Below are positions 4,918-62,213 of a DNA stretch of 64,000 nt, piece after piece. The notes under the pieces are model-generated. The model worked only from the letters and a program-made list of their open reading frames with translations, did no database searches and was not told the DNA's origin. The position numbers and the translations under genes are program-made. The first letter of the stretch is position 1. Each line of letters opens with the position of its first letter. Source of the DNA: a virus; UHGV virus genome UHGV-2031204; one strand, given 5' to 3'.

Positions 4918-5532
4918 ATGTACAAAGTACGGGGTGATCATTTCATCCGTCCGAACTTAGGGTTACTGGAATACGCCACAGGTGGCGATTTCTATAAAGA
5001 TAAGTTAGTAAGAACCCTAATGCGCTTTCGCTGTATGCGAGTGTCTTTTCCTGCAACGATAGAGACGACGGATGAAGCAACGCGATATATCAATACCGCG
5101 ATTAGCGAGTTATCGAAAGCGTGTAACTTTCCTGGCAATAAAAGGGAACTGAAAGAGTTAGACAGTTACCTGAAACGGTTAAACGATGAATACCGGCAGT
5201 GGGAATTTAACTCAATGATGGAAACCAGTTATACGGAAGACATGATTGAGGATATGCGACCCCTCCTGGAAATCTATGAGTTATGTAAAATACAAGGCGG
5301 GTCTTCTTGGGATGTGTTGCGTGAACACGCGATAGAAATTCTTCGCGATAATATTCTCCAGATTTACGAGAATGATTGCGAACCCGTTATCCAGCTCTTT
5401 CGTACCGCACACAAATGTGGTATTGAGGGCCTGTGTTTAAACTTATCGTTACACGATGACTTAGGTACCGTTTCAGGTGTTTACGCTACGTTCCATCTGG
5501 ACATCACAATGTTGAGGAGTGATAATGTTTGA
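4918..5532 (+). CDS. hypothetical protein (204 aa)
   Basis: ATG immediately after the upstream TGA (4915..4917). Confidence 0.55.
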   Translation: MYKVRGDHFIRPNLGLLEYATGGDFYKDKLVRTLMRFRCMRVSFPATIETTDEATRYINTAISELSKACNFPGNKRELKELDSYLKRLNDEYRQWEFNSMMETSYTEDMIEDMRPLLEIYELCKIQGGSSWDVLREHAIEILRDNILQIYENDCEPVIQLFRTAHKCGIEGLCLNLSLHDDLGTVSGVYATFHLDITMLRSDNV

Positions 5533-5938
5533 TTTTAGTAACATTGAACCAGGGTCTATCGTAAATATTGTTTACGATACCCCGTTAAAAGGTAATGAAA
5601 CGCGAGTGCGTGTACTCGCGTCTAAAGTCGGCTATGAGTTTGCAAAAACCGCAGGCGAAGATCTGGCTGCTATCCAGAAGAACATTTATTCGTCGTTAGT
5701 AGCACAACCTTCAAATGACCTCACTGCGTATAACTATATGCTGTTCCGCGATTCTACAGGTAAAGTAGGCGTTGCGGCAGATGCATGGGTACGCGAAGTA
5801 AGGGTAATTACCAGTTTGACAGCACGTTTTGTTGTACAGCTCGATAACAAGCAGGAGAAAGAAGACCTGGAAGCTGCGTTGGCAGCACGTGGGTTTAATG
5901 ATGTGGAAATCGAGATCATTGAAAACGCGGCAGGTTAA
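5519..5938 (+). CDS. hypothetical protein (139 aa)
   Basis: GAGGAG upstream of the ATG; followed by the terminator at 5945..5986. Confidence 0.55.
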   Translation: MIMFDFSNIEPGSIVNIVYDTPLKGNETRVRVLASKVGYEFAKTAGEDLAAIQKNIYSSLVAQPSNDLTAYNYMLFRDSTGKVGVAADAWVREVRVITSLTARFVVQLDNKQEKEDLEAALAARGFNDVEIEIIENAAG

Positions 5939-5944
5939 TCGAAA

Positions 5945-5986
5945 ATGTCCTCTCTTCGGAGAGGACATTCTTCTTTCTTTTTTTTC
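5945..5986 (+). terminator. rho-independent terminator
   Basis: Stem GTCCTCTC / GAGAGGAC with loop ttcg, then a T-rich run ending in T8. Confidence 0.6.
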
Positions 5987-6039: not shown

Positions 6040-8352
6040 GTGGAATACATTTCTCCTTTTCGTTTAACGGTAGATGAATACCATCGTGATATCGATGTCA
6101 ACGATGCCTACCGCGAACAAGTCGCGTTATACATTCATAACGTGACAGCACAAAAATACCCTTTAGAGTTTTGTCGTCAGGAAGTTGATGCTCTTATTGC
6201 ACCTGGCGGTGAGTTAGCAACTGAATCTCCTGTGTGTAAGATGTGGGTGCGTAATCAGAAAACGGGCGATCGTGAGGAAAAATACACAACCGTCGATAAG
6301 TTATTTAAAACCGTCATTGACAAACAGATTATCTCCGCACCTTCGTTAACTTTTTATTTGCCCGAACACGTCAAACGTTCTAAGTTATCTGAATTCACAG
6401 CAGCTAACGTAGCGAAACGTGCCGCGGTAAAAAAGGAAATGTTTGCTGCTGCAGCAGCAGGCAATGAAGTATTAAAGATCAACAAAAAGAACGAACAGAA
6501 CGCGGTCAAGACGCTGAATAACGGAATGTCGGGTGCATTTTCCTCTCCGTACACGATTATTTTCAACCAGTCTTCACACTCCGTACTAACGTCCACTTGT
6601 CGTACTGCAACTTCGTTCGGCAATGCTGGTAATGAACGTTTATTAGGCGGTAATCGGCATTACGATACCCCGTCGCGTATTATCGATCATTTCTTATCTA
6701 TCGGTACCTTAACCGATTGGAATAGCTTTAAGAAATGTATGGAGACGTATGAGCTTCATTACCCGTCGGTAGAAGAGGTGATGGAAGTTATTCATTATTC
6801 TGCCGATTTCTACTTTAAGAGCGAAGCGGGGATGGAGTTCGTTGAGCATTACGTTAGTAATGTATCGCCGTTGACGCGTGCCGCGTTTGTTTACATGGGT
6901 GATTTTTTCCACCTGGCGAAATACAACGATAAGTTCATGCGCGACTTTATTGGCGCATTGATTACCCCTGATGTGCGTGTTGATACTGAGGGCTGGACTG
7001 ATACGGACTGGGTTGCTGCTGAGAAGACCATCGATGGTGATATGCAGATTATTATCTCACAGTTCCGTACCGACGTAGTACCGATGGGTAAGGCGTTCAG
7101 TGACGTTAAGAAATTTGACGGTAATAAAAAACCCTTGCCGTGGGATCAGCAGGACGGTTATAAAGAACTAATTCGTTCCGCGTTGTTCTTACAGAAAACG
7201 ATCGGTAAATACGCACTACTGATTCGCAATATTCTTACCACGAAAAATTTACCGATCAATATTGCCCGAATGCCGGATGTGGTTCGTCGTGTAGGTGTAG
7301 TGTCTGATACTGACTCTACAATGATGACTGCGCAATGGTGGGCAATCTGGTACACCGGTAAACATTACGGTGAAGTAGCGACCCGTGTTTCCAATGCGAT
7401 GATCTATATTGCGACACAGCACTTACGACATTTGATGGCGAGCATGTCAGCAAACATCGGTGTGGCGAAGGAGCGTTTGTTCCTGTATGCAATGAAGAAC
7501 GAATTTAAGTTTGATTCGTTTGCACTGACTACCAAAGCAAAACATTACTTCTCGTTGATTACCGGACAGGAAGGCCAGCTGAAAAAAGATCCCGAGCTGG
7601 AAGTAAAAGGTGTGTCTTTACGTACATCTAACATTCCTCCGATTATCATGAAGGAGTTTAAGAACACCATCAAAGGGTTATGTGAAGTTGTTGCCCGTGG
7701 TGATCAGATCGAAATCATTCCGTTGCTGGAAAAGGTTGCCCAAATCGAACACACGATTATGGATTCTATTCGTTCTGGGAATCCAGGGTATTTGAAAACG
7801 ACTAACATTAAGGAACGTAGCGCTTATAACGAGAAGGATGAAAAGAACTACCATTACCACCGAATGTATAATGCTATCTTTGGTCCGAAGTTTGGTTATT
7901 TGGAAGAACCGCCCTACGATGCTGTGAAACTTCCGGTAACGTTGGAAAACAAAACGAAGATTAAAGAATGGATTGACAGTATCGAAGATCCGATTATCAA
8001 GAACGGTGCATCGGCGTGGTTTGAGGAGACAAATTTCCGTAAATATAAAACGTTGATTCTACCAGAGCATTTGGTGGAAAACTACGGTATTCCTAAAGAA
8101 CTGATCGATATCGCAGATATCCGTCGTACTGCTTTCTCTACGGTTGAACCGTATTATCACATTCTTGAATGCTTAGGTGTGTTCATGATGGATAAGAATA
8201 GGATGAGACTGTTATCAGATTTCTACGATAGAGTCGAGGAAGAAGACGAGCTGTACAAGGAATTAGCAGAAGTACAATACGTTAAGAAATCGGAGAGGGC
8301 AGGAGATGACGAAGAAGATGAAGACGAAGAAGAGGTTTTTGACGACGAGTGA
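6040..8352 (+). CDS. family-B DNA polymerase, polymerase part (motifs B and C), with acidic C-terminal tail
   Basis: 770 aa; GTG start after AGAGGA. Contains VVSDTDS (resembles motif C YGDTDS) and K-x3-NNG-x-SG (resembles motif B K-x3-NS-x-YG). No exonuclease motifs; C-terminus is ...DDEEDEDEEEVFDDE. Confidence 0.6.
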   Translation: MEYISPFRLTVDEYHRDIDVNDAYREQVALYIHNVTAQKYPLEFCRQEVDALIAPGGELATESPVCKMWVRNQKTGDREEKYTTVDKLFKTVIDKQIISAPSLTFYLPEHVKRSKLSEFTAANVAKRAAVKKEMFAAAAAGNEVLKINKKNEQNAVKTLNNGMSGAFSSPYTIIFNQSSHSVLTSTCRTATSFGNAGNERLLGGNRHYDTPSRIIDHFLSIGTLTDWNSFKKCMETYELHYPSVEEVMEVIHYSADFYFKSEAGMEFVEHYVSNVSPLTRAAFVYMGDFFHLAKYNDKFMRDFIGALITPDVRVDTEGWTDTDWVAAEKTIDGDMQIIISQFRTDVVPMGKAFSDVKKFDGNKKPLPWDQQDGYKELIRSALFLQKTIGKYALLIRNILTTKNLPINIARMPDVVRRVGVVSDTDSTMMTAQWWAIWYTGKHYGEVATRVSNAMIYIATQHLRHLMASMSANIGVAKERLFLYAMKNEFKFDSFALTTKAKHYFSLITGQEGQLKKDPELEVKGVSLRTSNIPPIIMKEFKNTIKGLCEVVARGDQIEIIPLLEKVAQIEHTIMDSIRSGNPGYLKTTNIKERSAYNEKDEKNYHYHRMYNAIFGPKFGYLEEPPYDAVKLPVTLENKTKIKEWIDSIEDPIIKNGASAWFEETNFRKYKTLILPEHLVENYGIPKELIDIADIRRTAFSTVEPYYHILECLGVFMMDKNRMRLLSDFYDRVEEEDELYKELAEVQYVKKSERAGDDEEDEDEEEVFDDE

Positions 8353-8584: not shown

Positions 8585-9646
8585 TTAATTTTCTAATGCC
8601 TGATATAATGGTAAAATTAACTCGTGTCGATAGTAATTTCTAGCCGACCGTGTAAGTTTTTCCAATATCTTCGCATCTTCGAATCTGGCTATACGCACCA
8701 TTAAATTGGATTTGTATTTGCTCATACTCGAGTTGTCGAACTGTAAGCAGAACAACGCCCAATACCAGTTCACGATGTTTCGATGCCAACTACCCTGAAT
8801 GGTTGAGCCTGGGTCTTTAAAAAGGATGCGGTCTACCGCAGTGGTAGGGTGTGCCGGATCATCAAAGAACTGTGGAATGTGTGCCATGACCACACCAGGT
8901 AAAGGTTTACCTGCACGAAGTGCTTTACACACTTGCGTTGCGTGTTTAATTGAAAGTTCACGTAAAGGCGGTGTAGGGACAACACGAAGTGGTGTTTCGG
9001 GTTCGACTTCTTTACCTGTTGCGACAGCGCGATGAATATTTAAAAATGCGATATTCATGTAGCTGGGTAGCATACGGTAAATGATGTGTCGCTGCGCGTA
9101 AACTACACGGTTAATCGGTTCGGATTGCGTTCGGTAATATTGTTCTGCAAGAACGTATTGCCATAGCAGTGCAACCAGATTAATTTCAATAATACTGATG
9201 CCACGGGGTTTGCCGTTCCCGAGACTCCAGTTAAGATTCGTGTACTCGTGATAAAGATAAACTGCAGGTGTGTAGTCACGAAAAGACAGTTCAGGATCAA
9301 TAGGACGTGCGACGAGTGAAATAATCTCATCTTGCCCTTCGATAAAGATCCCATTGAAAACTTGACCATACTCCCCCACAGAAGTTAGGTGTAGTGCATT
9401 ACCGATATCGGAAAGTTTGCGTCGACATGCCCACTCGATCTCTTCGTAGCTGGGTTCACCCGCATATCCGATAGCCGCTAAGATTTTGAGTACCAGATGG
9501 CCTGAAACAACACGGGTTTGAATGGACTCTAAATAGTTGCGAATGCGCTGATTATTATTTTTTACGGCACTGACCAATTGTATAGCGGAAGGGTCTTCGA
9601 ATTTACCCTTTATGGCTGCTTGGTTTAACTCGGCTTGACTGAACAT
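8585..9646 (-). CDS. hypothetical protein (353 aa)
   Basis: Minus-strand ORF with AAGGAG upstream of its ATG; divergent from the 9855 gene. No motif recognised. Confidence 0.55.
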   Translation of the reverse strand: MFSQAELNQAAIKGKFEDPSAIQLVSAVKNNNQRIRNYLESIQTRVVSGHLVLKILAAIGYAGEPSYEEIEWACRRKLSDIGNALHLTSVGEYGQVFNGIFIEGQDEIISLVARPIDPELSFRDYTPAVYLYHEYTNLNWSLGNGKPRGISIIEINLVALLWQYVLAEQYYRTQSEPINRVVYAQRHIIYRMLPSYMNIAFLNIHRAVATGKEVEPETPLRVVPTPPLRELSIKHATQVCKALRAGKPLPGVVMAHIPQFFDDPAHPTTAVDRILFKDPGSTIQGSWHRNIVNWYWALFCLQFDNSSMSKYKSNLMVRIARFEDAKILEKLTRSARNYYRHELILPLYQALEN

Positions 9647-9811: not shown

Positions 9812-9854
9812 ACCAACACTACAATTGTATTAAACCTTATAAGGATTAAGTAAA

Positions 9855-11702
9855 ATGGCTAAAGAGTTTATTGACAATCAAAACGACGTTGTGACTGGTG
9901 CTGCTGGTTCCGCTGCAGATCCAATTCCGTCTTTCGGTGGCGCGGGAGCTGCTACTGTGGATAATACCAATGCGGCCAACGCTTTTGGTGGGATGTCTAA
10001 AAACATCTCTACTTTCGATAAAGCTTTCGGATACATGTCTTTCGTGTCCACTGCTTCTCAGTTCACCAGCCTGATTGAGAAGATGGCGGAGAAGAATACA
10101 TACCTGCGTAACTTCCGTTGGGGTGTTATTGACGGCATCAACTCTGAAATGGGTTCTGCTGCATACGTGGCTGGTCCGTCTGGCGATAACCATAACGAAT
10201 GGCTCTACGGCATCCTGTTCTTTGAACATGGCCAGTCCATCCGTTTCTACGAAATCAACGGTAAAGAAAACTACTACACCCTGGCGCAGCTGTTCAGCCA
10301 AGAAGGTGTGATGAACAACATCACTAACCAGATTGCAACTCAGCACAACCTGCCAAGCGTACAGTTCATGGTAATGAACTGCGTACCGGAACTGGGTAAA
10401 ACCATGAACGAAGAATGGGCTAACCAGCTCATGGGCCAGATTGCACTGGGTATCTTCGGTCGTCATTCCGGCTACCTGGGCTACCTGAAAATGACCCGTT
10501 CTGATCGCTTCACCGCGCAAGTCAGCGTAGTTGAAGAAGGTTCTGTAACTGATGTTAACGGTTCTGCACAACGTGCTGACCTGATGGTTGTGGTTGACCA
10601 TACTCGCACCGGCAACAACGATAATAACCCGACGCTGTTCTCTTCTGAACGCCTCCAGAATTATCCGAGCGTTGCAGGTGTTGGTTACATCAACCTCCGC
10701 CATAAAGGTAAACCTCAGACCCTGACTAACGGTACTCAGGACCTGCGTCAGCTGGAAGCCGAAGTGGTTGTTTCCCTGATGGATTCTCAGTCCTCTGGGG
10801 CAATGGCACCTATCGAGCGTCAGCTGATTGAACTGGCCGCGTTCGCACAAATCGCCACTATCGGTGGCTGGCGTGAACGTTTCATGCAGTCGCTGAACAA
10901 AACCGATCGCCGCTTCTCCCGCGTTCTGGAGTATGTAGAATGGGGCAGCGAAAAACCTGACCTGAGCAAAATCGACGGTAACCGTGAAGTTATCGAGAAA
11001 TGCCTGGACACCTTCGCTAACCCGACTGCGGCCCTGGTGGTGAACCATCGTGCAGGTAACGGTATCGGTGGTCTGTCTACTCTCCTGAGCGAAATCGGGA
11101 TGGGTAACACCAACGCACTGTACACCCTGTTCAATATCCTGGATAACATGGCCAGCAACGGCGCGACTAAGTTCAGCACTCGCTTCAAAGCACTGCTGGG
11201 CAATGTCACCAACTTCGAGTGCAAACACGTTGTTATTGCCGGTTGCCCGACCATCTCTGGCCAGTATTTCAGCAACAGCCAGAAACGCAGCTTCCAGGAT
11301 ATGGACTTGGTTTCCGCTCTGACTAAAGTGGGTGATAACCAACGCGATGCGATCGACTACATCAGTGCACAGTCCTACTCTCACCGCTATCTGAATGCGC
11401 GTGACCAGCGTCTGTACCTGCTGAAAATGGCTGCGTCCATGTTCGGTAGCAAACAGCCGCAGGTAACGGGTGAAGCGTCTGACCTGGCGATCAATCCGCT
11501 GTTTGGTAAAGCACTGGTGGAATACATTACTGAAAACTGCAACTTCCAGGTGAATGGTGTTACCGCAGCGAACAGCCTCACTCACTCTGTGTTTGTTAAC
11601 ACGGGTAATGAGAACTTCGCGCTGTCTGGTAGCGGTCCTAACGCATTTGGTAGCGATTTCGGTATGTCCTTCGCTGCAACTGACTGGCGTCCGACTTTCT
11701 AA
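9855..11702 (+). CDS. putative phage-nucleus shell protein (chimallin-like); alternatively another very abundant protein
   Basis: 615 aa with AAGGA upstream; strong bias to high-expression codons (CTG, CGT, GGT, AAC); Gly/Ala-rich N-terminal segment. Sits directly upstream of the RNAP beta-prime N gene, as phiKZ gp54/gp55 does (recalled, not searched). Size matches known chimallins (about 600-700 aa). Confidence 0.6.
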   Translation: MAKEFIDNQNDVVTGAAGSAADPIPSFGGAGAATVDNTNAANAFGGMSKNISTFDKAFGYMSFVSTASQFTSLIEKMAEKNTYLRNFRWGVIDGINSEMGSAAYVAGPSGDNHNEWLYGILFFEHGQSIRFYEINGKENYYTLAQLFSQEGVMNNITNQIATQHNLPSVQFMVMNCVPELGKTMNEEWANQLMGQIALGIFGRHSGYLGYLKMTRSDRFTAQVSVVEEGSVTDVNGSAQRADLMVVVDHTRTGNNDNNPTLFSSERLQNYPSVAGVGYINLRHKGKPQTLTNGTQDLRQLEAEVVVSLMDSQSSGAMAPIERQLIELAAFAQIATIGGWRERFMQSLNKTDRRFSRVLEYVEWGSEKPDLSKIDGNREVIEKCLDTFANPTAALVVNHRAGNGIGGLSTLLSEIGMGNTNALYTLFNILDNMASNGATKFSTRFKALLGNVTNFECKHVVIAGCPTISGQYFSNSQKRSFQDMDLVSALTKVGDNQRDAIDYISAQSYSHRYLNARDQRLYLLKMAASMFGSKQPQVTGEASDLAINPLFGKALVEYITENCNFQVNGVTAANSLTHSVFVNTGNENFALSGSGPNAFGSDFGMSFAATDWRPTF

Positions 11703-11731
11703 TAAGTTGGTAAGTAGTAAGCAGTAGTTGA

Positions 11732-11772
11732 GGGACAGGGGAAAACCCCCTGTCCCTTCCCTCTCTTTTTTT
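11732..11772 (+). terminator. rho-independent terminator
   Basis: Stem GGGACAGGGG / CCCCTGTCCC with loop aaaa, then a T-rich run. Confidence 0.65.
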
Positions 11773-11786
11773 GTTGAGGATTCGGC

Positions 11787-13394
11787 GTGGAACATAAACT
11801 AGAATATTACGGGATTTCGGGGCGACTAATTAGTCACGACAAGATGTTACGTGACTGTATACAAGAAGCGGAGGAAAAAGGCTACAAACCACCGATTATT
11901 ATCAATGACGTTGCTGCAACGATGGATACCATCGAAGCGTCGGAGATGATTAACCAAATACTCCAAAACCGAATCGTTGATGAAACACTCAACTCGGCTC
12001 CTATTTGCAGTCTGACCTGCGAATCACCTATTACCCATCGTTATAATCTTGGGCTACGTTGCCCACATTGCGGACATGTTGTTTCTGAACATCGGATTAC
12101 GTCCGATGTCTGGTTACGCGCCCCCGATGAGATGGGTAACTTTATCAATCCACGTTTTTGGTCTCTCTTTAATGCCTTCTTTGGCTCTAAGCTGAAAAAA
12201 TTTAATCGTAACAAAGTGACGGTAGAGCGCGGGTCTGATTTACTGCTGTGGCTAATCGATCCGTACTACCATCCAGAAAAGGACGAAGGAACACGTGCTC
12301 GCGTGGTGAAAAGAATACTCGGCGAACATGGCTTCGAACGGGGAATTCGAAACTTTATCGACCACCATCGAACCGTCTTTAATATCCTTACGTCCCCGGA
12401 AGCTTGGAAGGAGATTTATCCGCCAACGAAAAATAACCGTTATGAGAGTGAGCGCGTACGCTTAGAATGGCGTGAGTTCTTTCAGGAACAATCGTTCTCA
12501 TTCTTTCCAAGACACCTTCCGATTATTTCATCAAAACTGATCGTTACGGAGGAACGTCGACAAGGTATTTTTATCGATCCGGTTTATACCAGCGCTATCG
12601 ACGCAGTAAAAAATGTGGCGTTGTTGTACACGAATGCACGTCGTATCGAACCACGATTTATTATTCGTCGCGCAATCAAAGCGAATCGACAGCTTGCGTA
12701 TTTCTATATTGACCATCGTCAGGAAGTGATGGAAGGTAAACCTGGGTTCTATCGGGCAAAACTCGGGTCAACACACGTACCGTGGGGCGGACGTGTGACT
12801 ATCTCTCCTATCTCTGAACCTCACGATGCGTTGAAAGTTATTGCGCCTTGGCGTTGGTTGGTTCCGTTGGCGAGTGTTCACATCGAGAACAAGTTAGGTC
12901 GTCGTGATTATACACCTCGACAATGTGAGCGCATTATTGCATTTGCGGCAATGCAGTATGTACCGCTGGTACATGAAATTATTAATGAGTTGATTAAAGA
13001 ATCCCCCGGCGGATTCGGCTTAATGTTGGAAGTTCTGCGTAACCCAACATTGGTTCAACTTTCTATTCAGACATTGTTCATCTCAGCGGTACTGACAGAT
13101 GTAACACAATGTTCTCTGCGTATTTCTGATCGTGTCATCAAAGCGCCTAACGCTGATTTCGATGGCGACCAGTTACAATGCAGATTGGCAATCGACCAGA
13201 TTGAAATGGAACTGGGCATGGCTTATCGCCCAGACAACGGGTTTATGTCAAGCACGAATGTGGACGAGGTTTCGAGTTGTATGATTCTCCATAACGAGAA
13301 TATCAGCAACATAAACAGTTTCTTCCAGGATACTGAAGAGGACTTGGAAGCCGGTATCGCGCTTGACTCTGAATTATTAAAATTGGCGGGGTAA
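11787..13394 (+). CDS. multisubunit RNA polymerase beta-prime-like subunit, N-terminal fragment
   Basis: 535 aa; contains NADFDGDQ (the beta-prime catalytic Mg-binding motif) and an N-terminal C-x-x-C ... CPHC zinc-finger-like cluster; GTG start after GAGGA. Confidence 0.8.
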   Translation: MEHKLEYYGISGRLISHDKMLRDCIQEAEEKGYKPPIIINDVAATMDTIEASEMINQILQNRIVDETLNSAPICSLTCESPITHRYNLGLRCPHCGHVVSEHRITSDVWLRAPDEMGNFINPRFWSLFNAFFGSKLKKFNRNKVTVERGSDLLLWLIDPYYHPEKDEGTRARVVKRILGEHGFERGIRNFIDHHRTVFNILTSPEAWKEIYPPTKNNRYESERVRLEWREFFQEQSFSFFPRHLPIISSKLIVTEERRQGIFIDPVYTSAIDAVKNVALLYTNARRIEPRFIIRRAIKANRQLAYFYIDHRQEVMEGKPGFYRAKLGSTHVPWGGRVTISPISEPHDALKVIAPWRWLVPLASVHIENKLGRRDYTPRQCERIIAFAAMQYVPLVHEIINELIKESPGGFGLMLEVLRNPTLVQLSIQTLFISAVLTDVTQCSLRISDRVIKAPNADFDGDQLQCRLAIDQIEMELGMAYRPDNGFMSSTNVDEVSSCMILHNENISNINSFFQDTEEDLEAGIALDSELLKLAG

Positions 13395-13400
13395 TGAAAC

Positions 13401-13988
13401 ATGGGCATGTGGAACTTAGGCGGAACCATCTGGACGCGACAAACTGAAAATAGCGGGATGTATCGCTATTTCAGAGACAATTTCGATATTAACGCCTTTG
13501 CTCCCGACATGATCGAAAGCGTTAAACGAAAATGTAATGAGTTAATTTCATTAGAGCGTTTCCGTGAGATGTATGCAGCCGCACGCAAAGTACAGCACAG
13601 CGATGCGACTGACGTTGTACGACAATTGGAGAAGATAGGACAATTCCAGTTTGCAAACGCAACTTTACAGCCGTTGCTGATGGCATTGCCAGAATATCGA
13701 CAATTGTACAATAACAACATGGCGACCGGTTACGAGAACGGGTATTCGAAAATCGATAACTTCCGTGGTTCGGCGTATATGCATACGGACGATAACTTCC
13801 GCGAAGTAACGTCGGGTATGTCCAACGAGTACGATGAAGATCGTATTTGGAACTGGGTATCCAACGAAGATCGATCCAACAAACTCACGCGTGTAGAGCA
13901 AGTTGACATGCAAATCAACTGGGCACGTATGCGGAGTTTTGATTGGGAAGACGAAGATCCGTGTTCTGAACTCGGCGCTTCGTGTTAA
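13401..13988 (+). CDS. hypothetical protein (195 aa)
   Basis: ORF followed by the terminator at 13994..14026. Confidence 0.55.
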   Translation: MGMWNLGGTIWTRQTENSGMYRYFRDNFDINAFAPDMIESVKRKCNELISLERFREMYAAARKVQHSDATDVVRQLEKIGQFQFANATLQPLLMALPEYRQLYNNNMATGYENGYSKIDNFRGSAYMHTDDNFREVTSGMSNEYDEDRIWNWVSNEDRSNKLTRVEQVDMQINWARMRSFDWEDEDPCSELGASC

Positions 13989-13993
13989 TCGAA

Positions 13994-14026
13994 AAGAAGG
14001 GGATTGGGCACCCCCTTCTTTTTTCT
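13994..14026 (+). terminator. rho-independent terminator
   Basis: GC-rich hairpin (AGAAGGGG ... CCCCCTTCT) followed by a T-run. Confidence 0.55.
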
Positions 14027-14065
14027 TATTTACAGCAGCAGCTATCAATGTGATAGGAGTAGAGA

Positions 14066-14449
14066 ATGGCGATTGCAGTAGGCACGGTTTCTACACGCGG
14101 CTGGGCAAAAACTCCCCGTGAACGTATTCGTGAGATGATGAATCATTACACGGAAGCGGGGTATAGCCAATCGCAAATTTATCAAGGCAATGTCCGGTCA
14201 CTTGCGAAAGCAAAGCAAATGTTTGCTCAAGATCCCGACGGCTTAGCCAATCGGGTGAAAACAGACTTAACCACGCTTTACGAACATATTTTTCCTGAGG
14301 GGGTTGAAGTAGAGACAACCTGGGAATATTTGCCGGATACCGATGTACGCTACCGTATCATCATTCAAGCTCGCGTTATGTCGGGTGGGGTGTGGTATGA
14401 TGTGGAACGTTACGTTGAAACTGAATCATCAGTCATTGAGGATGAGTAA
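14066..14449 (+). CDS. hypothetical protein (127 aa)
   Basis: AGGAG upstream of the ATG. Confidence 0.55.
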   Translation: MAIAVGTVSTRGWAKTPRERIREMMNHYTEAGYSQSQIYQGNVRSLAKAKQMFAQDPDGLANRVKTDLTTLYEHIFPEGVEVETTWEYLPDTDVRYRIIIQARVMSGGVWYDVERYVETESSVIEDE

Positions 14450-14451
14450 GG

Positions 14452-15120
14452 ATGGATCAAGAACCGGGAAAATTTAATGGTGTACCCATTGAAGAACTTT
14501 CTGGCCGTGCTAAGTTTGAGTTTGAGAAACTTCTTGAAATGGAAGAGATGCTTAAACAGGGCCAGGGTGTGTGCAGCGTGTTTACTGAATCGATGTTCCG
14601 TCGACAAGGTTTGCCGTTGTTGTCGGGGATGTTGGACGGTACGTTTAACGAAGATACCTGGACGGATTATGTAGGTAGTGCTTTCGTTCCGTTACAGATT
14701 GTTTCGGATTCGGATAATTCAAAACTACTCTTTACGATCCCGCCTCTGCTTAATACTGGTCGGTCACTCCAACACGTCGATGGCCAACCGTCGCTCACTG
14801 AAGAAACAGAGATGATTCGGCAACAAGCCGATATCATTTCCGAGGTCGGTGAACGGCAGATGTATCAGATGATCGACTATACGTTGGACGGTATCGAACA
14901 GTTGTCGTACGAAGAAAATGCACTTCGTGCGAAACAGACTATCGATCTGTTAAACTGGATCTTCCGTCGTTATAACGTGTCAGGACAATTACCTTATCCT
15001 GAAGGACTTGAAGAATTGTGCAATCGTATCCAGGGACAAAAGAAACCTATAACGGCGGCACAACCTGAACAGTCCTCCCCTGCTAAGGGAAGAAGAATCA
15101 TCGATGAAGAGGATTACTAA
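14452..15120 (+). CDS. hypothetical protein (222 aa)
   Basis: ATG 3 nt after the upstream stop. Confidence 0.55.
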   Translation: MDQEPGKFNGVPIEELSGRAKFEFEKLLEMEEMLKQGQGVCSVFTESMFRRQGLPLLSGMLDGTFNEDTWTDYVGSAFVPLQIVSDSDNSKLLFTIPPLLNTGRSLQHVDGQPSLTEETEMIRQQADIISEVGERQMYQMIDYTLDGIEQLSYEENALRAKQTIDLLNWIFRRYNVSGQLPYPEGLEELCNRIQGQKKPITAAQPEQSSPAKGRRIIDEEDY

Positions 15121-35235: not shown

Positions 35236-35240
35236 AAGTA

Positions 35241-35281
35241 TTACCCTACTCCCGAAGGAGTAGGGTAACGTTTATTTTTTT
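35241..35281. terminator. bidirectional terminator hairpin, near-identical to 40599..40642
   Basis: Stem TTACCCTACTCC / GGAGTAGGGTAA with loop cgaa, then a T-run; between convergent genes. Confidence 0.65.
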
Positions 35282-37061
35282 ACCGTGCAGCTTTGATGTA
35301 TTCAAAAGGATCGGTAATCGTTTCTCCTTGTCTACGTAGAAAAGCTTCTAAGACGACATTTTTATCGGGCAATAGGAAGAAATCTGTCGCGATTTCCATT
35401 GCATTGACGCGCCCCGCAGTAAGGTTAATACCGACACGACGCCGTACCTCTTCAGGAACACCGTGAATGCTCAGTAGCTCGATTAACGTTGTTTCACGAG
35501 ACTGGTTCATCATGTTCGTTGCAGATGGGTATGCCTGGGTTAAGTCAGCATCCGCAGTTTGCCCACGGAAAGCCGTGTAGAAATCATCAACTTCTTTGAT
35601 GATGTTTCGTAGCCCATTCTCTGCGTTCATACACGCAGTCAATGTAACAATCCAACCATCCGTCCCAATGACTTCATTGTCGAAATCGTTACGCATCGCG
35701 CTACCCACACAACCGATAACCAGGCCCTGTTCATAGAGGTAATACGTGTATGCAATACAGATTCGCTTCGGCAGAGAAGGGAAAATATCATACATCGAAT
35801 AACCCGCCAAAACTGAAATAGCAGAAGACAGATCGTTCGTCTTTTTATCGAGCAGAACAATCATCAAGTTATCGAAGATGTTATAAACGCAGTATTCTAA
35901 CGGGAAATCTTTCTGCGCCTTTAAGTGCCATTCCAACTTCTCCTCGTAGGGCAGTTCCGGTAAGTCCAACTTGTTTAAACCCAACTCGGTTTCCAGTATC
36001 GCGTTAAGTTTGTAAGAGGGGCGTTGTCCCTCGTGTACACGCAATGAACGGAATAGACACATTGCATCTACACAGTAGAATGACGCCGTACAATAAAGAA
36101 TGTGCCACTGTTGCGAAGGCGCTTTTGTTAATGACTTTGATTCCGTTTTCTTCGATGCTTCGTCTTTCTTAAAGTAGACACGACGGTACTGTTTTGGCAC
36201 GTCAGGATGACAGAAGACGTCTTCCGGTGGAATCCCCGCAGCTTCTAAAGCTTCCAACATACGTGAAATATCGAACTCGTGGTTCCATGCGACGAGTAAG
36301 TCAGGAAGCCGAGGATGGATTTCCTCAAACATCCGTTGAATGCAACAACCTGAATTGAGGCATTCGTAAACGAAGATTTTGTAACCATCGATAACGTTTT
36401 TGTATTTAACGATAGGATTGTCGTTCTCGTCTTTTCCACGAAAAGCGATTTTAGAAAGCAATTCCTGAGCACGTTTGACGAGTCGCGCTTCAAAGTTTTC
36501 ACGCCCACAACGGGTGACGTAGTCTTTCGTAGCAAAGAAATGAATTTCGTCGTCTAAAACAAAACTCATAATCCAGGGGTCTCGAGACTTGTCTTCTTCT
36601 CGAGTTTCCACGTCGTATACACAGATGCGGTTAGGTGAAACAGCATTAGGCCATTTACGTATGTACTTTTCTTTAATCCAGCTAGTAATGGGCAAATCAG
36701 CCCAGTAAACATACGGTGAAGTACAAACCTGACGGAGTGGTTTCTTTTTATCGGGAAAACGAATCCCCAGACCCATCTGTATGGTTGAGGACATCATTAC
36801 GTCCGTTGTTAAATATTCCTGGCACTTACTACGTTCTTCGTATTCTTTCTTTTCCTTGTGATTACGATGTTGTGGTAAAGTAATGTAGATGGGCCGTTTC
36901 AGATTTTCACGCATGACAATTCGTGGGATATATCTGCCATCTTTAGTATGGACGACCTCCTTTATGAGCACGAAGTCGTTTTCTTTCTGCTGATCGGTTG
37001 CGTAAGAAACAAACTTGCACTCCTTGGCAATAACGTCTTCCGGTGCGTAATAGTTATTCAT
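35280..37061 (-). CDS. family-B DNA polymerase, N-terminal part (3'-5' exonuclease domain plus motif A)
   Basis: Minus-strand ORF, start trimmed to the ATG at 37061 (594 aa). Contains VYDVETRE (Exo I, D-x-E), WNHEFD (Exo II), YNIFD (Exo III-like) and DADLTQAYPS (resembles motif A D-x-x-SLYPS). Confidence 0.55.
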   Translation of the reverse strand: MNNYYAPEDVIAKECKFVSYATDQQKENDFVLIKEVVHTKDGRYIPRIVMRENLKRPIYITLPQHRNHKEKKEYEERSKCQEYLTTDVMMSSTIQMGLGIRFPDKKKPLRQVCTSPYVYWADLPITSWIKEKYIRKWPNAVSPNRICVYDVETREEDKSRDPWIMSFVLDDEIHFFATKDYVTRCGRENFEARLVKRAQELLSKIAFRGKDENDNPIVKYKNVIDGYKIFVYECLNSGCCIQRMFEEIHPRLPDLLVAWNHEFDISRMLEALEAAGIPPEDVFCHPDVPKQYRRVYFKKDEASKKTESKSLTKAPSQQWHILYCTASFYCVDAMCLFRSLRVHEGQRPSYKLNAILETELGLNKLDLPELPYEEKLEWHLKAQKDFPLEYCVYNIFDNLMIVLLDKKTNDLSSAISVLAGYSMYDIFPSLPKRICIAYTYYLYEQGLVIGCVGSAMRNDFDNEVIGTDGWIVTLTACMNAENGLRNIIKEVDDFYTAFRGQTADADLTQAYPSATNMMNQSRETTLIELLSIHGVPEEVRRRVGINLTAGRVNAMEIATDFFLLPDKNVVLEAFLRRQGETITDPFEYIKAAR

Positions 37062-37132
37062 GATTTCACTCTCAAATCTAGCGGCTGCTATACTGATTTG
37101 TGGGTAATGTAATTTCTCAAAAGGAAACACAA

Positions 37133-38467
37133 ATGGGATATTGGCAAAATCACATTGCATCAGTTGCGGATGCAAAGGTTGTAGCCGCAGAATCGATTAA
37201 ATTCCAAGACAAAAAGAAGCTGGCAGAATTGGCTGATATTATTGCTAAGTTTCGTGGAGCAGGCGATTTCAGTCCTGCTGGCTACGAAAGTGCCGGGGTT
37301 TCGGATTGGGTATTTAAGAATATCGGCATTACGATTCACTTTAAGAACGGTGGTGAACTGGGTCTTGCTGACGTTGCTTTTGCAGGTGTGGAACCACCGA
37401 AATTGGATGCAAACAGTCCAATCATCGCATCGATGACTCGTGCGCTGTACGCAGGTAACAAAGACCTGGATATGTACAGTAAGTTCATCAAAGAAAACGA
37501 GCTAAACTCAACAATCGATGACAGCAGTGCAAAAATCAGTGGCGATCTGAGCAAAGTGGGTTCTCCGCTTTATCTTACCCCGGTGCTGTTGGAAAAATTA
37601 AATTTGACCGATCTGGAAATCGCCTCGGTGATTCTTCACGAAGTCGGGCACATCTACTATTATTTCCGCACTCTGATGCGCACTGTGGTGACTGATTTGC
37701 TGGCGGATGCTGCGGCTAACCGCATCATGGAAACGGAAGACCAGAATGTCCGCTTGCGTATCGTTAAAGACGTAGAGAAGATGCTGAACACGAAAGTGAA
37801 TCAGCCAGAAACGATTTGTACTGAGTACAAAAAAGAAAACGTCTACATGCACTTGGTCACACAGCTGTTATTAGATCGTCCGTTTATTAGTGGCAGTCAA
37901 GGCTTTGCTAACAGAACGTGGGAACGTGCTGCGGACGATTTTGCTTCCCGTTTCGGAGGCGCTCCTTATCTGGCTTCCGCACTGTATAAAATGGAAACCA
38001 GTTCGTTCTATTTGCTGCGGAACTCAGCGTATATGAACATGGGTGTCCATTTGACAGTAGAACTTTTCCGCGTGACTGCGCTGATAGTCTCTTCTACGAT
38101 TCCAATCATTCCGGTGATCTCCGTGACGTTCGGAATGATCTTAAATGACCCGGATAACACCATTTACGATCCGCCACAGCAGCGTTTTGAGGCAATGCGA
38201 CGTACACTCGTTGAAGAACTCAATACGATTAAAGACAAAAATACGAAAGCTGCTAACGAGCAACGTAAACGTATTTTAGATGGTATTGCGGTTATCGACA
38301 AGTTATTAGAAACCGTAAAAGATAAAGATAACTTGTACCAGTTTATCTGGAATACTTTAACGCCGAAGGGTCGTCGCTCACGTGCTGCAGTTGATTACCA
38401 GCGCGCGATTGGGAAGTATATGTCGAACGATCTTCGTATTGCTTCAGCCATGTTTAATGTCGAATAA
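37133..38467 (+). CDS. HExxH-motif protein (possible zinc metallopeptidase) with hydrophobic segment
   Basis: Track ORF trimmed to the ATG at 37133 (AAGGA upstream); contains VILHEVGHIYY and a likely membrane helix VTALIVSSTIPIIPVISVTFGMIL. Confidence 0.45.
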   Translation: MGYWQNHIASVADAKVVAAESIKFQDKKKLAELADIIAKFRGAGDFSPAGYESAGVSDWVFKNIGITIHFKNGGELGLADVAFAGVEPPKLDANSPIIASMTRALYAGNKDLDMYSKFIKENELNSTIDDSSAKISGDLSKVGSPLYLTPVLLEKLNLTDLEIASVILHEVGHIYYYFRTLMRTVVTDLLADAAANRIMETEDQNVRLRIVKDVEKMLNTKVNQPETICTEYKKENVYMHLVTQLLLDRPFISGSQGFANRTWERAADDFASRFGGAPYLASALYKMETSSFYLLRNSAYMNMGVHLTVELFRVTALIVSSTIPIIPVISVTFGMILNDPDNTIYDPPQQRFEAMRRTLVEELNTIKDKNTKAANEQRKRILDGIAVIDKLLETVKDKDNLYQFIWNTLTPKGRRSRAAVDYQRAIGKYMSNDLRIASAMFNVE

Positions 38468-47552: not shown

Positions 47553-47611
47553 GGGGGCCCCTCATTCTAGGGGCGTGTAATTGGGTTATATAACCAAAGG
47601 AAATAAACGAA

Positions 47612-48883
47612 ATGGCAAATTTCGCAAAAACTCGCGCCGCTCGTGAATCGATGGAAGCGGCCGATGAAGTAATCGACGGTATCAGCAACGTTGAACCGGC
47701 AGAAGAGAACCTGGACGTCCAACTTGCGGACGTAGCATCTATCGACGGTCAGCTCGATCAGCTGGAAACCGACGGTGAAACCCTGGCTGCCGATACCGAG
47801 CGTACTGAAGACGCTATCGAACAGGCGGAAGAAGCCGTTGCTAACGGTGAAGAAATGCCGGAAGAAGCGGTTGCCCTGCACGAAGTGGCACAGGAATCCA
47901 TCGCACGTCGTTGGTGCCTGGAACGTACTAAACTGGCACGCGAATCCTATCGCCGTGGTCGTGGTATGACTGCTGCTGCCCAGGAAGGTTGGAAAGAAAC
48001 CCTGAAAGATCTTTACGATCGTTTCATTCAGTTCTGTAAAGAAGTGATTGCGAAGATCAAAGACCTGAAACTGAAATATTTCAACGTCGGTAAGACCGCA
48101 CAGAAACGTGCGAAGAAATATCAGGAAATGCTGCGTAAGCTGGGCAAACAGAAGAAAGATGAGATCTCTGGTGGCTTTATCACCAAGCTGTCTATCGAAG
48201 GTAAATTCGATGCCGCTGGCTCTATCGCTATTGCGAAAGAAGTTACCGCAGGTAAAGCTAAAGGTTCCATCGCTGTTCTGGAAAAACAAGCTGGTGAAGC
48301 TGTGACTGCCGTTACCAAAGGTGACGATGACGCATTCAAAGCAATGCGTGGCGATCAGCCGGTAGAACTGTTTGGTAAAGCTGCTTCTAAACTGCACACT
48401 CTGCCGAACTTTGAAAAAGGTGATGCGTCTAAACTCCTGGCTCTGCCGGGCAACGCTTACGTTCAGGCTGGTACTAAAGAACTGGCTGGCGGCCACAAGT
48501 TCACCGCAATTGCTTTCATGAGCACCGGTGACGCTTCTGACGATAAAGACGTGAAAACTCCGTCTGTTTCTGAAATGGCTGGTGCTGCTTCTGCTCTGGA
48601 AGCGATCGGTAAAGGTTTCGAAGCCGTACTGAAAGATTTCCGTGCTTACGATTCTGAAATCGTGAAGCTGCAACAGGCTGCTGAGAATGCTGCTAAGGCG
48701 CTGAACAACGAAAAAGACGATAGCAAGTGGGATGGCCTGCGTAACGCACGTCAAGCTGCCGATTGGTCTGTTAAGAACTACCAGACCCTGAACCGCGCAG
48801 TTAGCTATGTTGCTAACACCGTTATTAGCGGTCTGAATGGCTACCTGGGTGCTGGTATCGGTGCTTACGAAAAATCTAAATAA
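47612..48883 (+). CDS. highly expressed protein, tandem paralog A (possible head internal protein)
   Basis: 423 aa; strongly codon-optimised; starts MANFAKTRAARESME, acidic N-terminal region, ends GYLGAGIGAYEKSK; paralogous to 48966..50231. Confidence 0.8.
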   Translation: MANFAKTRAARESMEAADEVIDGISNVEPAEENLDVQLADVASIDGQLDQLETDGETLAADTERTEDAIEQAEEAVANGEEMPEEAVALHEVAQESIARRWCLERTKLARESYRRGRGMTAAAQEGWKETLKDLYDRFIQFCKEVIAKIKDLKLKYFNVGKTAQKRAKKYQEMLRKLGKQKKDEISGGFITKLSIEGKFDAAGSIAIAKEVTAGKAKGSIAVLEKQAGEAVTAVTKGDDDAFKAMRGDQPVELFGKAASKLHTLPNFEKGDASKLLALPGNAYVQAGTKELAGGHKFTAIAFMSTGDASDDKDVKTPSVSEMAGAASALEAIGKGFEAVLKDFRAYDSEIVKLQQAAENAAKALNNEKDDSKWDGLRNARQAADWSVKNYQTLNRAVSYVANTVISGLNGYLGAGIGAYEKSK

Positions 48884-48965
48884 TCATTTAGATTCGTAGT
48901 TCCGTACAGTTCTTGAAATAAATCATCAGGGGAACAATACGTTCCCCTTAGAGGAAAAGCTTAAA

Positions 48966-50231
48966 ATGGCGAATTTCTACAAAAACAAAATTGCTCGTGA
49001 GTCTATGGAGTCTACTTCTACTGTAGTTCCAGACGGCATCGAACTGCCAGCAGAATCCGTAGAAGGCACTCTGGCCGATATCGAGCATGACACCAAACCG
49101 ATCGAAGCTCTGGACGCTGACGCTGAACTGCTGGCAGAAGACGGCGACGAAACTGACGCTCAGCTGGATGTTCTGGATGAAGCTCAGGCTGCTGCTGACG
49201 GTGAAGGTGCAGGCGAAGACGGTGAAGAACCGATGGATGCCGAAGAAGATATGCCGGACGACGCTGCGACTGCGCTGGACGTTGCTCAGGAATCTATCCG
49301 TTCTCGTTGGAACTTCGAACACCGTTCTTCTGTTGCACACGAATCCTACGGTTCTCGTAACCGTCGTCAGGTTGCTCGTGAATCCCTGTGGGAAGACATC
49401 AAAGCCTTCCTGGGCCGTATTCTCGATTGGCTGAAAGAACAAGGCCGCAAACTGAAAGATCGCTGGCTGAAATTCCACAACCAGGGTAAATCTATTCAGG
49501 CACGTGCTAAGAAATACGATGAAGTTATTCGTAAGCTTGGCAAACAGAAGAAAGATGAGATCTCTGGTGGCTTTATCAAGTCTCTGTCTATCGACGGCAA
49601 GTTCGTCGGTGATAATATTCCGAAACTGAAAGGTATCCTTAACCAGGTCTCCTCGTTCTATAGCGCTAAGATGCCTGCCATGGCCGCTAAAGCTGCTGAA
49701 GTGGTTTCCGATGTTACCAAAGGTAATGGCGTTAAAGTTGAAAAACTGAAAGCCGACTTTACCGAACTGTCCAAACAAGACAGTCTCCAAAACTTCAAGC
49801 TCGGTAACATGGCGGTGAAAACCGAGTATGACAACGAAGGCGGCTTCAGCTCCACCTTTGTTGAAGCTGAAAACAGCGTTGAAACTAGCGTGAAAACTCC
49901 GTCTGTTGGCGAACTGGCCAAAATCAATGCTCTCTTCAACGAAGTGGGTAAACAGATTGAGAAGAACGTTCAGGATTATCGTAAAGTCGAAAGCGCGCGG
50001 AAAACCTTTGAAGATAATATCGATAAGCTCCTGAAAGAAGTCGATAAAGTTAAGATCGACGAAAAACCGGAACTGACCGAAGGTGTACGTGCTGCCCGTC
50101 GTTTCATCACCAGCGTTAACCAGGGTCTGTCTCTGGGTGAGAAGGTTATTGCTTCTACTCAGAAACACCTGGCCGGTGGTCTGAACGGTTACCTGAGTGC
50201 CGGTATCGGCGCTTACGAAAAATCTAAATAA
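48966..50231 (+). CDS. highly expressed protein, tandem paralog B (possible head internal protein)
   Basis: 421 aa; starts MANFYKNKIARESME, ends GYLSAGIGAYEKSK; shared central block RKLGKQKKDEISGGFI and about 80-90% DNA identity to paralog A in conserved stretches. Confidence 0.8.
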   Translation: MANFYKNKIARESMESTSTVVPDGIELPAESVEGTLADIEHDTKPIEALDADAELLAEDGDETDAQLDVLDEAQAAADGEGAGEDGEEPMDAEEDMPDDAATALDVAQESIRSRWNFEHRSSVAHESYGSRNRRQVARESLWEDIKAFLGRILDWLKEQGRKLKDRWLKFHNQGKSIQARAKKYDEVIRKLGKQKKDEISGGFIKSLSIDGKFVGDNIPKLKGILNQVSSFYSAKMPAMAAKAAEVVSDVTKGNGVKVEKLKADFTELSKQDSLQNFKLGNMAVKTEYDNEGGFSSTFVEAENSVETSVKTPSVGELAKINALFNEVGKQIEKNVQDYRKVESARKTFEDNIDKLLKEVDKVKIDEKPELTEGVRAARRFITSVNQGLSLGEKVIASTQKHLAGGLNGYLSAGIGAYEKSK

Positions 50232-50249
50232 TCCCTGATTGTTTAGTAA

Positions 50250-50295
50250 GAGAACCACCCTGTAATGGGGTGGTTCTCTCTTTTCTTTTTTTTTC
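50250..50295 (+). terminator. strong rho-independent terminator
   Basis: Stem GAGAACCACCC / GGGGTGGTTCTC with loop tgtaat, then a long T-rich run ending in T9. Confidence 0.7.
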
Positions 50296-60650: not shown

Positions 60651-62213
60651 TCAAAAGAGTTCGTCACCCATGCCGCCGGTAAATACGTTAATCGACGAGG
60701 CTGTTACAGTTTCTTCTTTATCACAATCCCATGGCAAAATGCCAACATCACGGAAAGGTATTACAGTATAATGATAAGCTTCTTTGGTATCAATAATGGT
60801 ACGGTGTTTACCGCGTTGTACTTCTAAATAGCTGTGTCCGCTGACGACACGTTTGTTAAAATACATCTCACCGTCAGCTTCGTTGTCTAAGCTAGAGCAG
60901 TTGTCGTAAAGACCACGACCAGGTAAGCTCTTACAGAAACTTGCTGGGTCGAGTGCTTTTAATTTTTTGCCTTCTGGTGAGATTTGGTGTGGTGCTAAGA
61001 GGAAACCACGATTACGTACCACTTGGATGTTTCGCGCGATACGATAAATTTCTTTAATGTCACTACCCGCAATACCGTTACCGTGCCCTGCTTTGCTGAT
61101 AGTACCGAAATAGTCTCCGCGTATTCCAGCTACATGATAACCTCGACGTTTTAGATCTAAAATCAAATCATTCAAATAGTGAATTTTAAAATCGGAGTTT
61201 GTGTGTTTTTGGAAAATATACTCCCAACCGTTTGCCCGCATTTTACTACAGAGGTAATCTGACATTTGTGCATTGTGTAGCGCTTTTTCTTCGTCAGTTG
61301 CCGTTTCAGGTGCAACCATTACCGGAGCTGTACCTTCAAAGTGTCCGTAAAGTGCTTGATACGCGTAAGCCAAGTTAACATCTAATTCGTTTTCTAAACT
61401 TAAATCCAGAATAACCGGTTGTAAGTCACCTTTAACATTTGCCATCACCTTTTCTGGGGTGTTGAATACAGGAATGCTAATAGAGAGCAATAAACTGAAT
61501 AATGACTTACAGTTAAAGGGTAGTGCGGGCATTAGCCAGAGTTCTTCGGTGATCCCTTTGTTACAGCCAAGCATTTGGTTAATTGCTTTCCACCCCGTAC
61601 GTAACCCATTACCTGCCGCTTTCTTACTGATAGAGTCGAATACATGTACGAAGGGTGCTTTATTGTCAGTAATCAATTCCCCTACCAGAGAAGGAATCTT
61701 ATTATGAGAGCGTTCACTGAACGTGGATAAGGTATCCTTAAGGTCGTTGAGCGCCGTTTGTAAATCAACACGCGTTTCAGTGCCGTTCAGTGCGCCTAAC
61801 GTACGACCCAATTTTTGTTTCAGTTGTACGCCTTGAATAGCTTGACGTAACTGAAAGTAGTATTGTGCTACTTGGCGATTAAGATGCTCGATGCGTGCTT
61901 CTGGTTCTTCTGGAATATCATCTTCCAGGAATTTGGTAATCGTATCGTATAGAGGACGTATTTGCGTAGTGGCCAGTTTCAAACGTTTCATGACGTTTGT
62001 GTGGTCGTAAGGCATACCGCCGTCTATGATGGATGTGATGATATCCTTGATTTCGACGAGGGCGGCACGTTCGTCACCTTCTTCTGCGTAATCAGGAAGC
62101 TTAGCCTCTAACAGCACTTTTCTTATGATGTCGTGGTCCTTTTCAGGATCGGTCAGAAGACTTTCAGCGTATAATGTGGCTAAGGCGGTTATCAACATCA
62201 TTTTGTTATTCAT
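60651..62213 (-). CDS. hypothetical protein (520 aa)
   Basis: Minus-strand ORF with AAGGA 6 nt upstream of its ATG; no motif recognised. Confidence 0.6.
   Translation of the reverse strand: MNNKMMLITALATLYAESLLTDPEKDHDIIRKVLLEAKLPDYAEEGDERAALVEIKDIITSIIDGGMPYDHTNVMKRLKLATTQIRPLYDTITKFLEDDIPEEPEARIEHLNRQVAQYYFQLRQAIQGVQLKQKLGRTLGALNGTETRVDLQTALNDLKDTLSTFSERSHNKIPSLVGELITDNKAPFVHVFDSISKKAAGNGLRTGWKAINQMLGCNKGITEELWLMPALPFNCKSLFSLLLSISIPVFNTPEKVMANVKGDLQPVILDLSLENELDVNLAYAYQALYGHFEGTAPVMVAPETATDEEKALHNAQMSDYLCSKMRANGWEYIFQKHTNSDFKIHYLNDLILDLKRRGYHVAGIRGDYFGTISKAGHGNGIAGSDIKEIYRIARNIQVVRNRGFLLAPHQISPEGKKLKALDPASFCKSLPGRGLYDNCSSLDNEADGEMYFNKRVVSGHSYLEVQRGKHRTIIDTKEAYHYTVIPFRDVGILPWDCDKEETVTASSINVFTGGMGDELF

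Follow-up and report, generated by a model that had tools for sequence, protein, structure and literature searches.

The DNA analysed here is a 64,000-nucleotide stretch of the virus genome UHGV-2031204 (hereafter, the window). It encodes two proteins, DNAP-N and DNAP-C, which very probably pair up as the subunits of a single replicative family-B DNA polymerase (PolB) of a PhiKZ-like jumbo phage. In the arrangement that we propose, DNAP-N would contribute the N-terminal domain, the 3'-5' exonuclease for proofreading and the palm's first strand, on which motif A lies, and DNAP-C would supply the rest of the palm (the pre-finger hairpin, the motif C aspartates Asp423 and Asp425, and the KxY motif), the fingers, a helical insertion and the thumb. 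The two chains, together 1,363 amino acids (aa) long, would associate non-covalently in a 1:1 ratio, so that the polymerase active site would be built across the subunit interface, and a clamp-derived RNase H protein (Rhc), whose gene would lie elsewhere in the genome, would complete the holoenzyme. An earlier interpretation made from the letters alone (the sequence-only reading) had proposed two PolB genes on opposite strands, 27 kb apart; both open reading frames (ORFs) are present as it placed them, and the spacing is 26,927 bp. The split as such is already known, with descriptions dating from 2011-2012 and a cryo-electron microscopy (cryo-EM) structure of the PhiKZ complex, and the window provides another member of this system.

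The first line of evidence comes from the catalytic motifs (Table 1). Their conservation was determined in two family alignments, one of 36 N-half homologues (A1) and one of 38 C-half homologues (A2), and in a wider N-half sample consisting of the 150 best of 763 representatives (E <= 1e-30) of 50%-identity clusters built from 1.84 billion proteins; the median length of these 150 is 573 aa. Three exonuclease motifs and a motif A had been read on the minus-strand gene, and all four aligned to the corresponding RB69 motifs and were conserved in 144-150 of the 150 representatives. By alignment, motif A of DNAP-N contains the catalytic, metal-binding Asp506 and the steric-gate Tyr511. Its residues D504, D506, Y511 and P512 are each found in 144-149 of the 150 representatives, the remainder being alignment gaps, most of them in shorter sequences that are probably truncated. 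In A1, the pairs D150/E152 and Y393/D397 and the motif A positions D504/D506/Y511/P512 are invariant, and N260/D264 nearly so. The plus-strand gene had been credited with motif B, motif C and an acidic tail and with no exonuclease motifs, and this description also stands: motif B residues K157, N160, N161, S164 and G165, like the core of motif C, are identical in all 38 sequences of A2, K523 is invariant as well, and exonuclease motifs are absent from DNAP-C. Because the catalytic positions are invariant in the family alignments (those of Exo II nearly so), the motifs of both halves are, judging from these alignments, not chance matches.

Table 1. Coordinates of the two polymerase genes, their motifs and adjacent features in the window.
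Feature	Position	Strand	Description
DNAP-N	35280..37061	-	Putative N-terminal subunit, 593 aa; N-terminal domain, 3'-5' exonuclease domain, first palm segment with motif A
Exo I (D150-V-E152, DVE)	36606..36614	-	Aligned to RB69 D114/E116; conserved in 150/150
Exo II (N260-HEF-D264, NHEFD)	36270..36284	-	Aligned to RB69 WNVESFD (D222); conserved in 144/150
Exo III (Y393-NIF-D397, YNIFD)	35871..35885	-	Aligned to RB69 Y323/D327; conserved in 150/150
Motif A (DADLTQAYPS, residues 504-513)	35523..35552	-	Aligned to RB69 DLTSLYPS 411-418 (hhalign, hmmsearch)
DNAP-C	6040..8352	+	Putative C-terminal subunit of the split PolB, 770 aa; palm parts (pre-finger hairpin, motif C, KxY), fingers carrying motif B, large insertion of helices, thumb
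Motif B (K157-TLNNGMSG165), fingers	6508..6534	+	Aligned to RB69 KLLINSLYG and Pol zeta KLLANVTYG
Motif C (VVSDTDS, D423/D425), palm	7297..7317	+	Aligned to RB69 YGDTDS 619-624; D423/T424/D425 in 38/38
KxY (K501-H-Y503, AKHYF)	7537..7551	+	hhalign equivalent of RB69 KKRY; 38/38
LLSDFY motif (residues 724-729)	8209..8226	+	Family form L[LIV]SD[FY]Y; conserved C-terminus
Acidic tail (...DDEEDEDEEEVFDDE)	8227..8349	+	41 aa, 22 of them D/E; beyond residue 729, where the Pfam model stops
SH3-fold gene	5519..5938	+	Directly upstream of DNAP-C; Pfam PF20287 SH3DP, E 1e-30
Terminator-like hairpin and T run	5944..5969	+	Between the SH3DP gene and DNAP-C; consensus match only
Bidirectional terminator-like hairpin	35240..35269		Directly 3' of DNAP-N, between convergent genes; consensus match only

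The second line of evidence is that the two halves cover complementary parts of one polymerase. In an hhalign comparison with a profile of seven T4-like PolBs, one continuous alignment, extending over motif A, placed residues 106-532 of DNAP-N on RB69 72-437 (probability 98.7%, E 1.7e-16). DNAP-C matched further downstream in two blocks: residues 72-184 correspond to RB69 426-587, which comprises the pre-finger hairpin and motif B (E 7.6e-4), and residues 416-565 to RB69 614-766, which comprises motif C and KKRY (E 2.6e-3). A hidden Markov model (HMM) of A1, searched against the PDB sequences, likewise matched RB69 gp43 (E 5e-7), with collinear stretches at Exo I, II and III and at RB69 405-431, and for both halves the motif mapping obtained by this PDB hmmsearch was the same as that of hhalign. 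Family profiles were needed for this, as single-sequence searches of the PDB returned only noise for either half. In the reverse direction, the ranges of a T4-like PolB HMM matched by the two proteins are also complementary, the N half lying at or below model position 415 and the C half extending upward from 411 or 439. The same HMM, applied without filters to the window and to the whole 244,840-bp genome of Erwinia phage ChrisDB, matched only the two halves, so that neither contains a further PolB or a complete single-chain one; nor is there a paralogue of either half within the window.

Structure predictions agree with this assignment in most respects. The top PDB match in Foldseek searches was RB69 gp43 for the AlphaFold2 models of both halves (E 3e-13 for the N half and 7e-5 for the C half), and both are thus similar in fold to solved family-B polymerases; far from belonging to unrelated families, they match RB69 gp43 in complementary, collinear ranges. 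The model of DNAP-N alone has a mean predicted local distance difference test score (pLDDT) of 81; residues 1-450 are confident, and most of residues 455-593, the segment that contains motif A, scores below 50, which fits a segment that would fold only against its partner. DNAP-C alone was modelled with a mean pLDDT of 85, with helices forming a long insertion between its motifs B and C.

As the RB69 ranges of the halves are complementary and collinear (72-437 versus 426-587 and 614-766), the break maps inside the palm. The alignments place it at about RB69 430-445, that is, 15-30 residues past motif A and before the fingers, and so between motifs A and B as the sequence-only reading had proposed. 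Around this point both chains contain sequence without an RB69 counterpart, namely about 70-90 residues at the end of DNAP-N, following motif A, and 70-90 residues at the start of DNAP-C, which together replace about 20 residues of RB69. These additional segments are likely docking elements. The C-terminus of DNAP-C has two further features. The first is the LLSDFY motif, which is present in most of the 38 A2 sequences, several distant homologues ending there or a few residues later. Kazlauskas and Venclovas (2011, PMC3201878) proposed that the C-terminal motif of the family resembles a clamp-binding motif, and LLSDFY is a candidate docking motif for a clamp-like partner. The second is the acidic tail, which in A2 occurs only in the SPN3US/Erwinia-like subclade and hence, on this distribution, is an appendix specific to that clade rather than a trait of the family. 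One could speculate that the break segments (DNAP-N from about 520 to 593 and DNAP-C 1-90) and the acidic tail form a regulated docking module allowing separate control of the assembly, stoichiometry or nuclear import of the halves, in which case the polymerase would gain activity only where the two chains come together within the phage nucleus, and that the acidic tail is a DNA mimic or a partner-binding switch peculiar to its clade; we consider all of this unlikely.

Several observations weigh against reading the two proteins as subunits that share one active site. Firstly, the matches of the C half to RB69 are individually weak (hhalign probabilities of 25% and 11% for the blocks with E-values of 7.6e-4 and 2.6e-3, respectively), and they are credible only because they are collinear, fall on invariant motifs and agree with the fold searches. 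Secondly, the isolated AlphaFold2 model of DNAP-C draws motif C as something other than the canonical beta-hairpin. Thirdly, our view of the subunit pairing in the window phage derives from sequences and single-chain models. Finally, in two earlier papers (PMC3201878, PMC7824862) the C half is taken to be a polymerase module complete in itself, the exonuclease being separate.

The last point leads to a different explanation, according to which DNAP-C is self-sufficient and contains both catalytic aspartates, DNAP-N is a loosely associated exonuclease, and its DADLTQAYPS is vestigial. Kazlauskas and Venclovas (2011, PMC3201878) indeed named D229 of the EL protein as the motif A aspartate, along with D398, and Iyer et al. 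(2021, PMC7824862) stated that no 3'->5' exonuclease domain is fused to these polymerases. However, EL D229 corresponds to D226 of DNAP-C, a position that is variable, being Asp in 29, Asn in eight and Glu in one of the 38 homologues, and that lies downstream of motif B, which breaks the A-B-C order; in the model, moreover, it falls within predicted helices (residues 211-236). We found no other equivalent of motif A in DNAP-C. The motif A of the N half, on the other hand, is as conserved as the exonuclease catalytic residues and lies inside the 98.7% collinear RB69 alignment, and the T4-like PolB HMM covers the two proteins in complementary ranges only. In addition, the PhiKZ halves form a stable 1:1 "core polymerase" complex according to a preprint (Basu et al., bioRxiv 2026, PMC13648687). 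We therefore regard a self-sufficient DNAP-C as very unlikely and favour a composite active site with motif A on the N subunit, in which the N half would not be merely a detachable proofreader. Assembly of the active site from two polypeptides, as suggested by the sequence-only reading, is thus consistent with the alignments, which find motif A only on the N half and motifs B and C on the C half. This is the sole nuance that we add to what was known: the two older papers assigned the entire polymerase domain to the C half, which the present data contradict.

Two other explanations concern the origin and the fate of the two chains. That a split intein joins them by protein trans-splicing into a single-chain polymerase has next to nothing in its favour beyond the existence of split or intein-containing PolB genes in other jumbo phages such as MIJ3 (PMC6892783), given that a Pfam scan with E-values up to 1 found no intein or Hint family match in either protein, that inspection of the break segments by eye revealed neither an N-terminal Cys/Ser block nor a terminal HN followed by Cys/Ser/Thr, and that PhiKZ yields a complex of two separate subunits (PMC13648687). 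Equally far-fetched is a split that is recent or artefactual, due to an assembly error, a gene-breaking inversion or the decay of pseudogenes, for which nothing speaks except the unusual layout, and against which stand the same two-gene layout in about 300 phage genomes of many genera, the 763 N-half cluster representatives, the intact state of both ORFs with their invariant catalytic residues, and an identical N-half protein on independent public contigs.

The distribution of the halves argues for a much older event. By tblastn, 299 phage records contain the C half and 300 the N half; the counts per genus are near-identical and, among the matches listed, there is usually one copy of each. In the 21 tabulated genomes, 28-52 kb separate the genes (counted across the record ends for permuted records); they usually lie on opposite strands, but PhiKZ-like Pseudomonas phages have both on one strand. 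A fusion to a C half is seen in none of the 150 best N-half representatives; the single long one (P0189, 894 aa) owes its length to a C-terminal extension of about 330 aa, acidic and rich in Ala, without similarity to the C half. Since the two-gene layout is widespread and no fused form occurs among these 150 representatives, the split is, as far as such comparisons tell, old and stable across the phage family. Two side observations were made in these searches. The N-half tblastn match falls into two or three pieces in PhiKZ-like and PhiPA3-like genomes (MT995926.1, 193970-195853; NC_028999.1 of PhiPA3, 74326-76694), a pattern suggesting that DNAP-N of those lineages contains an insertion, an intron or a frameshift. 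The other concerns P0063, a distant N-half-like protein of 610 aa from a 281-kb metagenomic contig, which matches Pfam PF03104 and ends about 90 residues past a motif-A-like DYDMGAFYPS; it may represent another large-phage lineage in which PolB is cut at about the same place.

The window belongs to a PhiKZ-like jumbo phage (nucleus-forming, a chimallivirus, "group 1" of Iyer). DNAP-C is a member of Pfam PF20286, "divergent family B DNA polymerase" (E 4e-279; 928 bits against a gathering cut-off of 25.7), covering positions 3-705 of the 705 in the model, and of phrog_2927. DNAP-N belongs to phrog_3011, "DNA polymerase" (E 6e-250), and matched no family in the Pfam scan. Other genes of the window also fit a PhiKZ-like phage, including pieces of a multisubunit RNA polymerase, a superfamily 2 helicase, internal head proteins and a DnaB-like helicase at 60651..62213 (-). 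All megablast matches were to jumbo phages of Erwinia and Cronobacter, with nucleotide identities of 72-78%; at the protein level, SPN3US-like Salmonella phages and Erwinia phage Asesino come closest (about 75-81%), and database proteins with 95-97% identity are found on contigs as long as 225 kb. Starting at about 6.5 kb, the window runs collinear with ChrisDB, whose counterparts of DNAP-C and DNAP-N are gp33 (12626-14935, +) and gp60 (42626-44404, -), both labelled "DNA polymerase" in RefSeq. Public records of relatives often list the N half as a "hypothetical protein", and with the present assignment both genes can be named as subunits of one DNA polymerase. We also noticed that the DNAP-N orthologue of Erwinia phage pEa_SNUABM_8 (MW760841.1, 43500-45263) is labelled "putative DNA-directed RNA polymerase beta subunit", which looks like a mis-annotation.

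How does the window polymerase compare with known systems? These divergent PolBs, with exonuclease and polymerase on separate chains, were discovered by Kazlauskas and Venclovas in 2011 (PMC3201878), and their Pfam families were defined by Iyer et al. in 2021 (PMC7824862). The term "split subunit DNA polymerase" is applied to SPN3US gp18 and gp44, and to OBP, in two further papers by Thomas et al. (2016/2017), where Cornelissen 2012 is credited (PMC5694885, PMC5105663). The SPN3US-like Salmonella phages are the closest characterised relatives, with amino-acid identities of about 81% for the C half and about 75% for the N half; their two genes follow the same order on opposite strands, about 29 kb apart, and there is no substantive difference from the window.

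The PhiKZ enzyme comes from the same phage family and has the same two-gene architecture, and it has been characterised in the preprint cited above: DNAP-N and DNAP-C constitute the stable 1:1 core polymerase, with a cryo-EM structure at 2.1 Å, and a third subunit, the clamp-derived RNase H Rhc, raises the activity (PMC13648687). The proteins of PhiKZ-like Pseudomonas phages are about 34% identical to those of the window over 94-98% of the length of both halves. They differ in that several of these genomes have the genes on the same strand, about 34 kb apart, whereas those of the window are on opposite strands, and in that the 41-aa acidic tail of DNAP-C in the window clade is unlike PhiKZ. 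By analogy, the window proteins would behave like their PhiKZ orthologues with respect to 1:1 complex formation, activity and stimulation by Rhc. Among the window ORFs, no Rhc or RNase H was detected by phmmer with E. coli RnhA, a weak test, yet one in which the same query does find a homologue in ChrisDB. This is gp228, annotated as "ribonuclease" (L015, 182771-184297), a protein of 508 aa that matches E. coli RNase HI with an E-value of 9.5e-13 and, on that similarity, is likely the orthologue of PhiKZ Rhc; its gene is located outside the region that is syntenic with the window.

Split PolBs are also found among T4-like phages, in which gp43A and gp43B of the Aeromonas phages 25, 44RR and Aes151 and of Acinetobacter phage Henu6 are likewise cut between motifs A and B, and the gp43 halves of phage 25 have been shown to co-purify and to be active (PMC2988022). 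Their sequences are close to T4, in contrast to the divergent window polymerase, and their genes are adjacent or about 2 kb apart (separated by mobile-element-like DNA) on one strand, not 27 kb apart on opposite strands. Furthermore, the halves of Aes151 and Henu6 correspond to RB69 3-503 and 516-903, so that their break is at the fingertip and not at about RB69 430-445 in the palm. Because the break sites differ, the splitting events were independent. The unsplit gp43 of RB69 and T4 is the best structural and profile match of both halves, and Exo I-III, motifs A, B and C and KxY are all collinear with it; however, it is one chain of about 900 aa and has neither the extra segments at the break point nor the insertion of helices that spans about 200 aa between motif B and motif C. 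The clamps are also different, in that RB69 uses a ring clamp (gp45) and PhiKZ the single clamp-derived Rhc subunit (PMC13648687). Finally, an engineered split Pfu polymerase shows that a family-B enzyme tolerates a chain break in the fingers region (PMC3061061); unlike the split of the window polymerase, this one is artificial and its break lies near the fingertip.

With respect to the genes themselves, DNAP-C has a GTG start codon preceded by GAGGA 6 nucleotides upstream. The ORF that encloses DNAP-N is longer than the gene (35280..37175, -, with a TTG start). The ATG at 37061, which gives the 593-aa product, is supported as the start, because the homologues are 585-600 aa long and an identical 593-aa product has been called on public contigs, six in number. 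The SH3-fold gene preceding DNAP-C belongs to a family described as "SH3 fold domain associated with phage DNA polymerases", whose neighbourhood was described by Iyer et al. (2021, PMC7824862), and it is a conserved polymerase neighbour that possibly encodes an accessory subunit. The number of terminator-like sites around the hairpin that separates these two genes equals the shuffle expectation. Sigma-70 promoter scans around both polymerase genes gave counts at or below shuffle expectation and were uninformative, which is to be expected because the phage has its own RNA polymerases.

On its other side, DNAP-C is convergent with a conserved gene of unknown function at 8585..9646 (-), which encodes 353 aa (phrog_3938, E 6e-126) and has a position equivalent to that of ChrisDB gp37. 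Elsewhere in the window, two tandem paralogues of an internal head protein at 47612..48883 (+) and 48966..50231 (+) both match phrog_2497 (E 2e-147 and 9e-120, respectively). Three long antisense ORFs of 649, 395 and 436 aa, at 9846..11795 (-), 47567..48754 (-) and 48948..50258 (-), lie almost exactly opposite real plus-strand genes, namely that of phrog_8316 and these two paralogues. They have no PHROG match and are probably shadow ORFs; even so, three full-length shadow ORFs per 64 kb at a guanine-plus-cytosine content of 45.5% are still unusual.

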